A stretch of 64,000 bases of DNA, from the sequence record PV611058. One strand, given 5' to 3'. The notes under the pieces were generated by a model, which searched no databases, was not told the DNA's origin, and saw only the letters and a list, made by a program, of their open reading frames with translations. The position numbers were made by a program, and so were the translations under genes. Shown here one piece after another: positions 26,970 through 29,712 of the stretch. Source of the DNA: Escherichia phage WPEC3. Each line of letters begins with the position of its first letter. The stretch's first letter is position 1.

Positions 26970-28481
26970 TTATTTTTTATCCTTTCCAACACCACGGTCG
27001 TACTCTTTGAATGAGTTATCAAGTGTAGTTAGTGCATACTCATATGCTTCTGGTGATTCAATGTCAACATCATCTGCACCATTTACTAAATCAGCCCAAG
27101 CCTTTTGAAGTTTACGAGCATTGTTACCAACATTATCTTTAATCCAACTAATATTTTTGTTGATACTTTTACTATCAGCACCTGCTTTTTTACCAATCTC
27201 GGATATCCACATCATTAACTTTTGAAGTTCATGAATTGATTTATCAGTCATTTCAAGATGTTCTTCTTCCATACCGTCAGAATCAGATGAACCAACGTCA
27301 ATTCCATGTTTAGCTAATAGTTTACCAAGTTCAAAGAATGCAGCTTCAGCAGGGAAGTCATAACCTTTGTCTTTGTAGTTATTCCATGCACTATCAAACT
27401 CGTCAACAAAACGGTTAGCATAATCTGGATTTTTAACTAATGCTTTATATACTGCCATTGCATGTTCAAAACCTTCTTTATCTGACCCAAACTCTTCCAT
27501 CTCAGGACGATGAATGTATCCATCCATATCAACGGTATCAGGTAGATCTTCTTGCTCAGGCTCAACATCTTTCTGTTCAACTGCACCTTCTTCATCTTTA
27601 CGTAGTAGATATCCATCAGGTGTCACTTTCTCACCATGTTCTGCTTCATACTTTTTCATAGTGTTGAATGCAGCATCCATAGCTGTTACGAAGCGACTTT
27701 TCTCACCTTGTACATAAGATTTAAGTGCACTGTTAACTGCATCTGATACGAGCTTAACCTTATCGTCTTTACCTTCTAAACGGTTTTCAAGTTTAGCCAG
27801 TACATTCTTGACTTGCTGGGCATTAGCACGGTCTGCTTTACCAATACTATCAAAAGTTTTAAGAATACCATCAAGACTTGCTTCACCCTGTTCAGGTTCT
27901 TTCGAATCTTCTTTGTGTGTACCTTCAAGTGCACGCATGATAGTACTGAATACTTCAGTGGGTTCAGTGCTCTTATTACCTTTCATTGCATCAAGTACAG
28001 CTTGTGCTTTACCTTTGAGTTCTTCTTTAGGAACTGCCTGTAGTGCTTTGACAATACCCTGAATCAACTGTGGTTTGTTAGCAAAGATCTTACCTAAGTT
28101 ATCAGATAACTCTTTAACAGGGTTAGCTGCTTTAGGAGCTTCTGGTTTTGGTTCTTCTTTAGGAACTGCTTGTTCTTTCTCAGCACGTTCCATATCAGCA
28201 AGGCGTTGTTTCTGTGTTGCGTTAAGAAGACCTAATGAGTTAACATAACGTAGCTTTTCTAGCTCAGTCATGTTCTCAGTACTCTTAACTTCACCTGCTT
28301 CTGCGTTTGCCTTACCAGCTAAACCTGTCCCTTGATTACGTGAACCACGTGACCCCTGTCCTGCTTGGTAGCTATTTTGACGACGATTGCGTTCACTCCA
28401 TTTATCAGAGTGACCTGCCATGTTCCCGCCATTTTTATCAGTAAATTGACCTGGCATTTGATTTCTCTCCATAGATTTCAT
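26970..28481 (-). CDS. Hypothetical protein (503 aa) with Gly/Arg/Gln-rich N-terminus and charged helical body
   Basis: Largest minus-strand ORF; shares the motif ...SLGLL... and K/E-rich helical segments with ORF 29329-29712. Confidence 0.55.
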   Translation of the reverse strand: MKSMERNQMPGQFTDKNGGNMAGHSDKWSERNRRQNSYQAGQGSRGSRNQGTGLAGKANAEAGEVKSTENMTELEKLRYVNSLGLLNATQKQRLADMERAEKEQAVPKEEPKPEAPKAANPVKELSDNLGKIFANKPQLIQGIVKALQAVPKEELKGKAQAVLDAMKGNKSTEPTEVFSTIMRALEGTHKEDSKEPEQGEASLDGILKTFDSIGKADRANAQQVKNVLAKLENRLEGKDDKVKLVSDAVNSALKSYVQGEKSRFVTAMDAAFNTMKKYEAEHGEKVTPDGYLLRKDEEGAVEQKDVEPEQEDLPDTVDMDGYIHRPEMEEFGSDKEGFEHAMAVYKALVKNPDYANRFVDEFDSAWNNYKDKGYDFPAEAAFFELGKLLAKHGIDVGSSDSDGMEEEHLEMTDKSIHELQKLMMWISEIGKKAGADSKSINKNISWIKDNVGNNARKLQKAWADLVNGADDVDIESPEAYEYALTTLDNSFKEYDRGVGKDKK

Positions 28482-28509
28482 ATTGTTTATTCTCTATGAC
28501 TATATTTAT

Positions 28510-28545
28510 AGTATAAAGAAAAGGTTGACCGAAGTCAACCCTATT
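28510..28545 (-). promoter_or_regulatory. PeSL-like cassette (hairpin aggttgac-cgaa-gtcaaccc)
   Basis: Upstream of ORF 26970-28481. Confidence 0.5.
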
Positions 28546-28562
28546 TTCACTGTACTATACCA

Positions 28563-28859
28563 TTAGTAGTTACAGTCAGCTTTCGCTGTGAATGTTTTAC
28601 TTTCTCCGCGTTGTGTGGTGATTCGTCCGAGCAAAGTAGTTTTGTCAATAGTCATTGTAGTTAGTACTGGAACATTACCTTCAAAGTCAATAGCTTTGAA
28701 ATTGTAGGTGGTTTCATTCTCCACTACACTTGGACCAAAGAGTTCATATGTGTTGATTTCAAGTGTGTCACCATCTGAACGCAACAGTGTGCAGTCCAGA
28801 TTAGGAGTAGCCAGTACTGGGAAAGCCAAACACATCATCATTACAATAATTAATTTCAT
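28563..28859 (-). CDS. Predicted secreted small protein
   Basis: 98 aa; N-terminus MKLIIVMMMCLAFPVLATP. Confidence 0.45.
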   Translation of the reverse strand: MKLIIVMMMCLAFPVLATPNLDCTLLRSDGDTLEINTYELFGPSVVENETTYNFKAIDFEGNVPVLTTMTIDKTTLLGRITTQRGESKTFTAKADCNY

Positions 28860-29119
28860 TTCACTTCTCCTGTTTTTTTCTTAGGATCAACCAATGACCA
28901 AATGAAGAATCCGAGAATTACAAGTACCCACAGAATCATGATAAAGAAAGCAAACAGTACAATAGTATTTGTCAAAAAGAAATACAATAGAATGTTCGAC
29001 CCAATACTACATACAATCAATGCAGCTTCATGTTTAACAACACGAATGGCAGTAATGAGTGCGGGAAGAAATCCGACAAATAACAGTACTAACGCATATA
29101 GTGATAATGTTTCAGCCAT
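28856..29119 (-). CDS. Small membrane protein
   Basis: 87 aa, hydrophobic. Confidence 0.45.
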   Translation of the reverse strand: MAETLSLYALVLLFVGFLPALITAIRVVKHEAALIVCSIGSNILLYFFLTNTIVLFAFFIMILWVLVILGFFIWSLVDPKKKTGEVK

Positions 29120-29284
29120 GATATCCCTTATTTGGTTTGTTCAACACTAGGTGTATTGATATAGGTGTCAATTGAATAACATACTGTACCCACTACAACA
29201 GCAGCGATTAGGGCAGCGATGATGAATTTAGTACCTTGCATAATTTAATACCTCACGTTGTTTGTATTTTGTATCACTTGATGA

Positions 29285-29328
29285 AAATATTATACGACAA
29301 AGGGCTGACTGAAGTCAACCCCTTTTAA
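29285..29328 (-). promoter_or_regulatory. PeSL-like cassette (hairpin gggctgac-tgaa-gtcaaccc; TTGACT-N18-TATAAT)
   Basis: Minus-strand reading: ggggTTGACTtcagtcagccctttgtcgTATAATattttc. Confidence 0.55.
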
Positions 29329-29712
29329 TTATTTTTTAAACTTATGTTTTTCGCCTTCAATAGAGTTCACGATGTCATCATGAATCTTGCGAAGGTTATG
29401 AGTTTTCTTTAGTGCTTCATGTAGTGCACGGAATGCTGCGTGTACTGTTGCCTTGAAGTGCTCTTTAGGAGTCACTTTAAGTTTCTCAATGATATCACGT
29501 ACATAAATTGGATGATCTTCAAATACACGATTCAATTCATGACCTAGTGATTCTAGACTGAAAGCTTTTTCACGTGAAGGACGATCATGTGCAAGACTTT
29601 GGTCAGGCTTTAGTAGACCTAGTGAATCAAGATACTTATGCTTATGTGCATTATCAATTCCAGAAATATCCACATCATGCGATGGATCTTTCTTATTCCA
29701 TTTATCAACCAT
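29329..29712 (-). CDS. Hypothetical protein, paralogous to the N-terminal region of 26970-28481
   Basis: 127 aa; shares the LDSLGLL / VNSLGLL motif and following helical segments. Confidence 0.5.
   Translation of the reverse strand: MVDKWNKKDPSHDVDISGIDNAHKHKYLDSLGLLKPDQSLAHDRPSREKAFSLESLGHELNRVFEDHPIYVRDIIEKLKVTPKEHFKATVHAAFRALHEALKKTHNLRKIHDDIVNSIEGEKHKFKK

Follow-up and report, generated by a model that had tools for sequence, protein, structure and literature searches.

What are the products of two neighboring genes, one long and one short, in Escherichia phage WPEC3, and why do they seem to share a helical module? The window analyzed here is a 64,000-nucleotide (nt) stretch of DNA from this phage (record PV611058), and all positions below refer to it unless stated otherwise. 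It shares ~99.6% nucleotide identity with Escherichia phage fEgEco12 and 88% with phage 121Q, both of which are Asteriusvirus-type jumbo myoviruses of ~350 to 375 kb. A preliminary description made from the sequence had singled out two open reading frames (ORFs), which we confirmed on the minus strand at 26970-28481 and 29329-29712, as a paralog pair with a common SLGLL-containing helical module, and had likened the Gly/Arg/Gln-rich N terminus of the longer product to packaged or injected proteins. By sequence comparison, the long and short genes are true paralogs; late expression of both in Asteriusvirus is strongly indicated by their promoter motifs, and we tentatively propose that they encode internal head proteins.

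The claim of a paralog pair proved correct. BLASTP with composition-based statistics aligned the two proteins over 115 columns (long residues 75-187, short residues 23-120) at 26% identity, with 40 bits and an E value of 5e-9. The segments quoted in the preliminary description aligned exactly (YVNSLGLL with YLDSLGLL, KELSDNLGKIF with ESLGHELNRVF, and VKALQAVPKEELK with IEKLKVTPKEHFK), and the pairwise alignment suggested there as a check gave this significant score. The Smith-Waterman score was 89, compared with 35 ± 5 in shuffled sequences, and was reached by 0 of 2000 shuffles of each protein (0/4000 in total). Across all ORFs of the window, phmmer returned reciprocal matches for the pair (2e-5 and 6e-6) and no third paralog. 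Profile-to-profile comparison of the two family alignments with hhalign gave a probability of 99.5% and an E value of 2.2e-22, spanning long residues 1-182 and short residues 1-123. Homology thus begins at the N terminus, with HSDKWSE in the long protein opposite VDKWNKK in the short, and runs to the end of the short protein, which has a 29-residue gap over most of the Gly/Arg/Gln-rich stretch. Because P0080, a 171-amino-acid (aa) homolog of the short type, still contains that stretch, the gap represents a deletion. The complete 121Q genome holds exactly two members of the family, gp199 and gp201: hmmsearch (--max) with three profiles, two for the module and one for the C terminus, found no others among all 5012 ORFs (next-best E value, 0.63), and a K-x-[KRQ]-Y...L-G-[LIM] motif occurred in just 2/5012 ORFs, again gp199 and gp201.

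Both window genes are members of a catalogued but uncharacterized virion protein family of RaK2-like jumbo phages (PHROG 20398/16530). The long protein matched phrog_20398 at 5.7e-245 and, through residues 9-188, phrog_16530 at 2e-40; the short protein matched phrog_16530 at 7.7e-55 and phrog_20398 at 1.9e-4. Both PHROGs are labelled "virion structural protein," which is also the existing annotation of both genes in 121Q and fEgEco12, where the records give no basis for it. Orthologs of the long gene are fEgEco12 g555, 121Q gp201, phAPEC6 gp035c, and RaK2 gp275; those of the short gene are fEgEco12 g551, 121Q gp199, and phAPEC6 gp037c. The N-terminal module of the long protein is 97% identical to that of 121Q and 89% identical to that of phAPEC6. 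The short protein is ~95% identical to its 121Q counterpart, and the module is 35 to 67% identical in other genera. Set beside the 121Q, phAPEC6, and RaK2 proteins, CBB gp038, and GAP32_032, the products of the window genes are not separable from the family. The most likely start codon of the long gene is its third ATG, at 28457 (MPGQF..., 495 aa), because homologs in other genera all begin with MP, because annotated orthologs are 495 aa long, and because a GGAG lies 9 nt upstream of this codon. The end of the long protein (...GVGKDKK) is unlike that of many long-type homologs; a C-terminal frameshift was considered and rejected, since 121Q gp201 ends identically and the difference is a lineage variant.

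The family is built from four elements (Table 1): (a) a basic disordered N terminus, (b) a signature helix, (c) a four-helix bundle, and (d) an extension, present in some genera, in which an indel-rich acidic helical stretch is followed by a conserved C-terminal unit. The long protein carries elements a to d, and the short protein carries b and c with a remnant of a. The SLGLL noticed in the preliminary description is part of the signature helix, of which K68, Y71, and G76 (long-protein numbering) are invariant in all aligned family members. Within the long family, residues 1-180 are 67 to 82% identical with almost no indels, the exception being a variable linker at residues 91-112 (45%). Residues 1-56 are among the family's best-conserved stretches across genera, and the bundle at residues 113-180 has a mean identity of 82% and zero indels. 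Residues 181-400 are highly plastic, with 41 to 50% mean identity, 10 to 61% of residues deleted in homologs, and 242 insertion columns.

AlphaFold2 models of both proteins were all-helical (long, mean predicted local distance difference test [pLDDT] of 69.7 and predicted template modeling score [pTM] of 0.27; short, mean pLDDT of 66.8 and pTM of 0.47). In the long-protein model, helices span residues 65-74 and 80-95 in the signature region, 113-124, 129-140, 144-160, and 166-177 in the bundle, and 405-488 in the C-terminal unit (pLDDT, 73 to 92). In the short-protein model, the motif lies in a helix at residues 21-30 and a four-helix bundle occupies residues 53-126 at a pLDDT of 81 to 87. A Foldseek search of the PDB with both models returned generic designed helical repeats only (best E value, >0.5), a fold search of BFVD returned matches from this family alone, a profile search of PDB sequences returned no match, and Pfam and NCBIfam gave sub-threshold noise only. 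Two further interpretations of the long protein were rejected. The structural maintenance of chromosomes (SMC)/chromosome segregation label of phAPEC6 gp035c is not borne out, as neither Pfam nor NCBIfam yielded an SMC or ATPase match and the model helices are short (10 to 20 residues), forming no long coiled coil. Nor are the later helical units diverged repeats of the four-helix module, with all hhalign probabilities below 8%. The analysis therefore corrects the annotation of gp035c as well as setting the start codon of the long gene.

Virion association of this family is already known, and virion proteomics, the second check suggested in the preliminary description, was positive in published data on relatives. 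Mass spectrometry (MS) of phAPEC6 virions detected gp035c through 8 peptides (28.8% coverage) and gp037c through 5 peptides (48%) (PMC7247149). In CBB virions, CBB_38 was identified by 9 peptides at 56.6% coverage (PMC5259590), and in RaK2 virions gp275 was identified by 20 peptides at 34.3% coverage (PMC3622015, supplement). The CBB supplement groups CBB_038, GAP32_032, and RaK2 ORF275 as one shared structural protein (PMC5259590), which we read as MS detection in all three phages (CBB, GAP32, and RaK2). Family members are virion-associated, having been detected in purified virions of three genera, and the proteins of the window phage are predicted to be so by orthology. The JP4 supplements contained no peptides of the pair. 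Since the short paralog is found in phAPEC6 virions without the Gly/Arg-rich segment, that segment is dispensable for incorporation. The suggested resemblance to packaged or injected proteins is thereby supported as far as virion association goes; its other part, an internal location or injection, is conjectural.

The distribution of peptides along CBB gp038 bears on the fate of the Gly/Arg-rich segment. In the CBB peptide report (Supplementary S6 of PMC5259590; 13 gel slices, searched for fully tryptic peptides only), all 9 unique peptides of gp038 fall within residues 50-172, where they cover 107/123 residues (87%), compared with 0% of residues 1-49. The N-terminal peptides NSATLAGHSDK, SASSHDAGQGSR, NQGTGIQGK, MPGTFR, and WSNSNR were absent from S6, alone or in missed-cleaved form. 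For peptides of at least 7 residues, 0/3 were seen in residues 1-49 and 8/8 in residues 50-172 (Fisher's exact test, P = 1/165; our own arithmetic). The segment deleted in the short paralog falls inside the unseen part of CBB gp038. This pattern fits removal of a Gly/Arg-rich leader in the mature particle and is suggestive only.

Late expression is indicated by a T4-type late-promoter motif, TATAAATA, upstream of each gene. These are the only two copies found in the 64-kb window, where 12.1 ± 3.1 would be expected, and in 121Q and phAPEC6 the motif is kept ahead of each of the two genes; it is also kept upstream of the RaK2 gene and of the family genes in related metagenomic contigs. Calibration against the whole 121Q genome, which encodes a gp55-like late sigma factor, gave 17 sites (67 ± 6 expected), with 12/17 in promoter position and the other 5 intragenic or antisense. 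Those in promoter position lead into genes for the major capsid protein, a gp22-like scaffold, two baseplate-hub proteins, and endonuclease VII, into the GroES operon, three other structural genes or operons, and one unknown gene, and into gp199 and gp201. By this calibration, an exact TATAAATA in promoter position reliably flags genes of the late or morphogenetic class in Asteriusvirus genomes. ATAAATA, which the CBB authors proposed as the late promoter of the clade, was likewise rare in the window (9 found; 41.6 ± 6.8 expected), and the avoidance of late-promoter words in both the window and 121Q looks like selection against spurious late promoters. The extended -10 motif TGnTATAAT was found 25 times, 24 of them on the minus strand (8.9 ± 3.4 expected). 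Both genes are preceded by unusually long gaps, and each is predicted to form its own transcription unit, bounded by a late promoter and hairpin terminators, inside a region otherwise under sigma-70-type extended -10 promoters. The extended -10 motif TGATATAAT, of a class also found upstream of 121Q replication genes, may be an additional early or middle promoter that places the short gene under dual control. The PA5oct paper contained no late-promoter information.

Table 1. Features of the paralog pair and its surroundings in the window (long and short refer to the two paralogs)
Feature	Position	Strand	Description
Long paralog, coding sequence	26970..28457	(-)	495 aa; open frame reaches upstream ATG at 28481 (503 aa)
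Long residues 1-56	28290..28457	(-)	Gly/Arg/Asn/Gln-rich; basic, isoelectric point (pI) 10.4; predicted disordered (pLDDT <50)
Long residues 57-90	28188..28289	(-)	Short helices with family signature K-x-K/R-Y-x-x-x-L-G-L (EKLRYVNSLGLL)
Long residues 113-180	27918..28121	(-)	Four-helix bundle common to short paralog (short residues 53-120)
Long residues 181-400	27258..27917	(-)	Acidic (pI 4.6), helical, highly plastic; not in short paralog
Long residues 401-495 and stop codon	26970..27257	(-)	C-terminal four-helix unit, conserved among long-type homologs
Short paralog, coding sequence	29329..29712	(-)	127 aa; pI 9.05; shared module alone, Gly/Arg-rich segment deleted
T4-type late-promoter motif TATAAATA	28503..28510	(-)	46 nt upstream of long-gene ATG at 28457
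T4-type late-promoter motif TATAAATA	29745..29752	(-)	33 nt upstream of short-gene ATG; AAGGAG Shine-Dalgarno between
Extended -10 TGATATAAT	29787..29795	(-)	Upstream of late motif of short gene; kept in 121Q and phAPEC6
GC-rich hairpin GGTTGACTTCGGTCAACC and T-run	28521..28542	(-)	Predicted intrinsic terminator shielding long gene from upstream transcription
Same hairpin GGTTGACTTCGGTCAACC, then TTTTTTT	26938..26963	(-)	Directly after long-gene stop; terminator
Hairpin variant, 2 mismatches to GGTTGACTTCGGTCAACC	29303..29320	(-)	Directly after short-gene stop; probable terminator, weaker T-run

Taken together, our preferred hypothesis, which we hold at somewhat short of an even chance, is that the long and short proteins are internal head proteins that are recruited via their shared N-terminal module and retained with the DNA. 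Both would be produced late, alongside the capsid proteins, and would enter the prohead when the shared module docks to a T4-type scaffolding core or inner shell. They would then stay with the DNA, possibly in the radiation-sensitive inner body of 121Q and phAPEC6, and might be ejected into the host. In such a scheme, elements b and c would be the incorporation determinant and the variable extension its cargo, with the Gly/Arg-rich segment as an accessory part that is either trimmed at maturation or DNA-bound. Elements b and c are the best candidates for this role, since every virion-detected member has them and since packaging of the short protein occurs even though it lacks the Gly/Arg-rich segment. 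The hypothesis draws on the design of the family, in which a conserved N-terminal element joined to plastic cargo matches the T4 internal proteins, and on the presence of a T4-type set of head genes, with gp20-, gp21-, gp22-, and gp23-like proteins (portal, protease, scaffold, and major capsid protein) encoded by 121Q. It also draws on the basic, disordered N terminus, on the CBB coverage pattern, which fits a trimmed leader, and on the finding that no relative occurs in any solved virion structure. 121Q and phAPEC6 possess a bubblegram-positive inner body.

Several observations weigh against an internal location. Whole-virion MS is blind to head versus tail and to inside versus outside, and the inner body is documented for Asteriusvirus members only, whereas the family is clade-wide. 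A T4-type capsid-targeting sequence is absent, with the first [LIV]-x-E at residue 114 of the long protein and residue 63 of the short. The unseen CBB peptides are the most hydrophilic ones (0 to 1 hydrophobic residues, compared with 2 to 7 in those detected), and their absence may therefore be technical, through chromatographic loss. CBB gp038 contains no Glu before residue 66, which excludes a T4-like Glu-specific cut within residues 1-49. On the side of timing, a literature search found no transcriptomes for the RaK2-like group, and CBB-type phages have a sigma-70-like promoter (TTGACA-N18-TATAAT) that overlaps CTAAATA, only a near-match to the late motif; the genera may thus not all express the gene at the same time.

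In T4, internal proteins couple very diverse cargo to a conserved element at the N terminus (PMC3012670). The family resembles T4 IPI, IPII, IPIII, and Alt by analogy in this arrangement and in belonging to a phage with T4-type head assembly, and in both cases the genes lie outside the head gene cluster. Unlike these proteins, however, it shows no sequence or fold match to them (Pfam, NCBIfam, PDB-sequence, and Foldseek searches), and its conserved element, motif helix plus bundle, is ~110 to 180 residues long compared with ~10 residues for the T4 targeting sequence. The cleavage consensus of T4 gp21 is L/I-x-E. The T4 targeting sequence ends in such a site, whereas none is present near the N terminus here, and no conserved protease site of either T4 or phiKZ type was found in that region. 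The inner-body or ejection paralogs of phiKZ-like phages (phiKZ gp89/90/93/95/97/162; SPN3US) offer a second parallel, being paralogous virion proteins of inner-body jumbo phages that are helical, charged, and unmatched in fold. Here, too, there are differences: the phage lineage is unrelated, a conserved S/A/G-x-E site is missing, and BFVD finds only the family itself. The phAPEC6 authors also reported no similarity to phiKZ inner-body proteins (PMC7247149). The pair is thus not part of the T4 internal-protein or phiKZ inner-body families; by analogy, it may work in a similar way.

A more specific version of the internal-head hypothesis, which we regard as doubtful, is that the pair and the single module-only protein of sister genera are inner-body or ejected proteins recruited by a new capsid-targeting module of ~110 residues (signature helix plus bundle) unrelated to the T4 targeting sequence, with the leader clipped by a protease that is not Glu-specific. 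If the module is an encapsidation signal, it would constitute a second way of packaging proteins into T4-related heads, independent of the first, and it could serve to bring foreign cargo into a capsid that accommodates ~350 kb of DNA. In any case, the family offers concrete candidates, open to testing, for components of the 121Q and phAPEC6 inner body, as it is clade-specific, apparently late-expressed, and virion-borne and combines a conserved N-terminal module with plastic cargo. Without the mechanistic reading, the locus is a correct but ordinary paralog pair of structural proteins, previously annotated. Four points appear to be undescribed in the literature searched: the paralogy of long and short genes, the division of the family into four elements and how this evolved, the islands of late promoters, calibrated across a whole genome, and the asymmetry of MS coverage.

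An alternative hypothesis is that the pair are external or peripheral accessory proteins, involved in capsid decoration, in anchoring fibers or "hairs," or in the neck or tail, with the module as the anchor and the extension facing outward. This we consider unlikely. In its favor, virion MS gives no location, phAPEC6 and CBB bear unusual capsid and tail fibers whose proteins are mostly unassigned, hypervariable indel-rich regions are also typical of surface-exposed proteins, and late promoters suit any structural protein. Against this, all-helical bundles with a basic disordered N terminus differ from the Ig-like or beta-rich folds usual in decoration and fiber proteins, the genes are distant from the head and tail modules, and the module-only form is kept in phages with very different fiber sets; the lack of a relative in solved virion structures, already mentioned, is weak evidence here.

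Less probable still is that the proteins are DNA-associated or copurifying passengers, whose Gly/Arg-rich N terminus binds phage DNA so that they are carried into the head or stick to particles. The N terminus is indeed basic and disordered (pI 10.4), "unexpected" proteins do appear in virion lists (SSB in RaK2 and 121Q, PhoH in RaK2), and the short gene may additionally be read from an early or middle promoter. Yet the short paralog without the basic segment still reached 48% coverage in phAPEC6 virions, detection was reproducible with good coverage in three or four genera, and both genes carry the exact late 8-mer of the major capsid protein and scaffold genes. Moreover, DNA-bound proteins are generally excluded by packaging motors. 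We therefore give this passenger role a small share of the probability.

A slightly smaller share goes to the possibility that the pair act in prohead assembly as scaffold-like factors of helical, highly charged type and are only partly removed, leaving remnants as the virion signal. The parallel with the gp22-like scaffolding core protein of T4 is that the proteins are helical, highly charged (Lys- and Glu-rich), and late-expressed in the same assembly pathway under a promoter motif in common with the scaffold gene, and N-terminal trimming is possible. However, 121Q already has a separate gp22-like scaffold gene beside those for the protease and major capsid protein, the family proteins persist in mature virions, and the 87% coverage of CBB gp038 residues 50-172 speaks for retention of the intact protein and against fragments; the variable extension is also unlike a scaffold. 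Finally, the suggestion that the pair are no paralogs at all, only two Lys/Glu-rich helical proteins alike by compositional chance, takes its appeal from their charge, helicity, and mere 26% identity and is effectively ruled out by the pairwise E value obtained despite composition-based statistics, the profile-to-profile E value, the shuffles, the P0080 intermediate that connects the long and short types, and the confinement of the motif to this pair among the ORFs of 121Q.

The phylogenetic spread of the family is narrow. A profile search of 1.84 billion representative proteins yielded 36 clusters, and this search and tblastn both confined the family to RaK2-like jumbo phages. By tblastn, the module was found in phages of Escherichia, Klebsiella, Salmonella, Erwinia, Yersinia, Serratia, Pectobacterium, Cronobacter, and Xanthomonas. 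Its commonest form is the module alone (156 to 202 aa); long forms (412 to 598 aa) occur in Asteriusvirus and Alcyoneusvirus, and tiny forms (66 to 127 aa) comprise the N-terminal region and motif helix only. Eneladusvirus and Mimasvirus have one module-only gene, and RaK2 and K64-1 apparently have the long form only. The short, N-terminally deleted type is also present in the Salmonella 7t3/SE_PL group, and in 7t3 it lies ~46 kb from a module-only gene with a full N terminus. The ancestor was likely a single virion protein made of the module alone; the C terminus was then extended in particular lineages, and a duplication took place in which the Gly/Arg-rich segment was lost. Some long-type homologs (P0007, P0030, P0046, P0048, and P0051) contain an insertion module of ~90 aa (MSEDEFREVNDYLG...AADDL), at alignment columns ~208-300 and 430-540, of which Klebsiella phage K64-1 has two copies and the window protein none; it points to shuffling of modules within the variable region. 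Among the distant family members (P0097, P0099, P0103, P0104, P0105, and P0108), several of small size or divergent sequence have a basic NRPVRR- or QRPFRR-like motif, lacking in the window proteins, at the end of the protein or within it.

Regulatory elements around the family vary between genera. Hairpin GGTTGACTTCGGTCAACC, counted with up to 3 mismatches, occurs at 8 sites in the window (0.02 expected), all on the minus strand between 20917 and 41039, and is apparently a reused terminator module, found also upstream of family members in metagenomic contigs L011 and L021. At Mimasvirus- and Eneladusvirus-type loci (L012, which is CBB, L019, L020, L023, and related loci), a conserved inverted repeat, AATCCCCTAA...TTAGGGGATT, followed by a T-run lies ~60 nt upstream of the family gene. 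It brackets a -10 region directly before the start codon and is a possible operator or attenuator-like hairpin. To judge by these signals, such phages regulate the family gene differently from Asteriusvirus.

The two paralogs are separated by a 98-aa signal-peptide protein gene and an 87-aa membrane protein gene (28563-29119, minus strand), both absent from 121Q, which has at this site only a gene for a 37-aa membrane peptide (window 29128-29241). Together, these two genes resemble a moron-like insertion that carries a TATAAT promoter of its own. The record of a related phage has "immunity to superinfection" and "membrane protein" annotated somewhere in the matched 3.8-kb region. Farther away, a lone plus-strand gene (46788-47945; region from 46750) in a long minus-strand region encodes a 385-aa protein 76% identical to 121Q gp155, an Ig-domain (immunoglobulin) virion structural protein. 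ATAAATA lies 38 nt upstream of this gene and is kept in 121Q, making it a putative third late-promoter island of the region. At the start of the window (107-15580, plus strand), ~12 consecutive ORFs of 264 to 449 aa correspond to the "DNA condensation protein" paralogs of 121Q (gp234-248), some of which are virion-associated in phAPEC6 and GAP32; RCC1-like repeats were found in 4/5 sampled (Pfam RCC1, RCC1_2, and WD40_RLD), and neither ATAAATA nor TATAAATA precedes any of the ORFs. The gene at 41048-42013 (minus strand), in a region of small genes, encodes a sigma factor of the sigma-70 family that has regions 2 and 3. This protein differs from the gp55-like late factor and probably corresponds to 121Q gp167 ("RNA polymerase sigma factor"), a match judged from size and position only. 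A cluster of six tRNA genes lies at 53520-58477 on the minus strand, with one gene each for Thr, Asn, and Met and three for Ser; one tRNA-Ser carries the unusual anticodon ACT, as annotated in 121Q as well.

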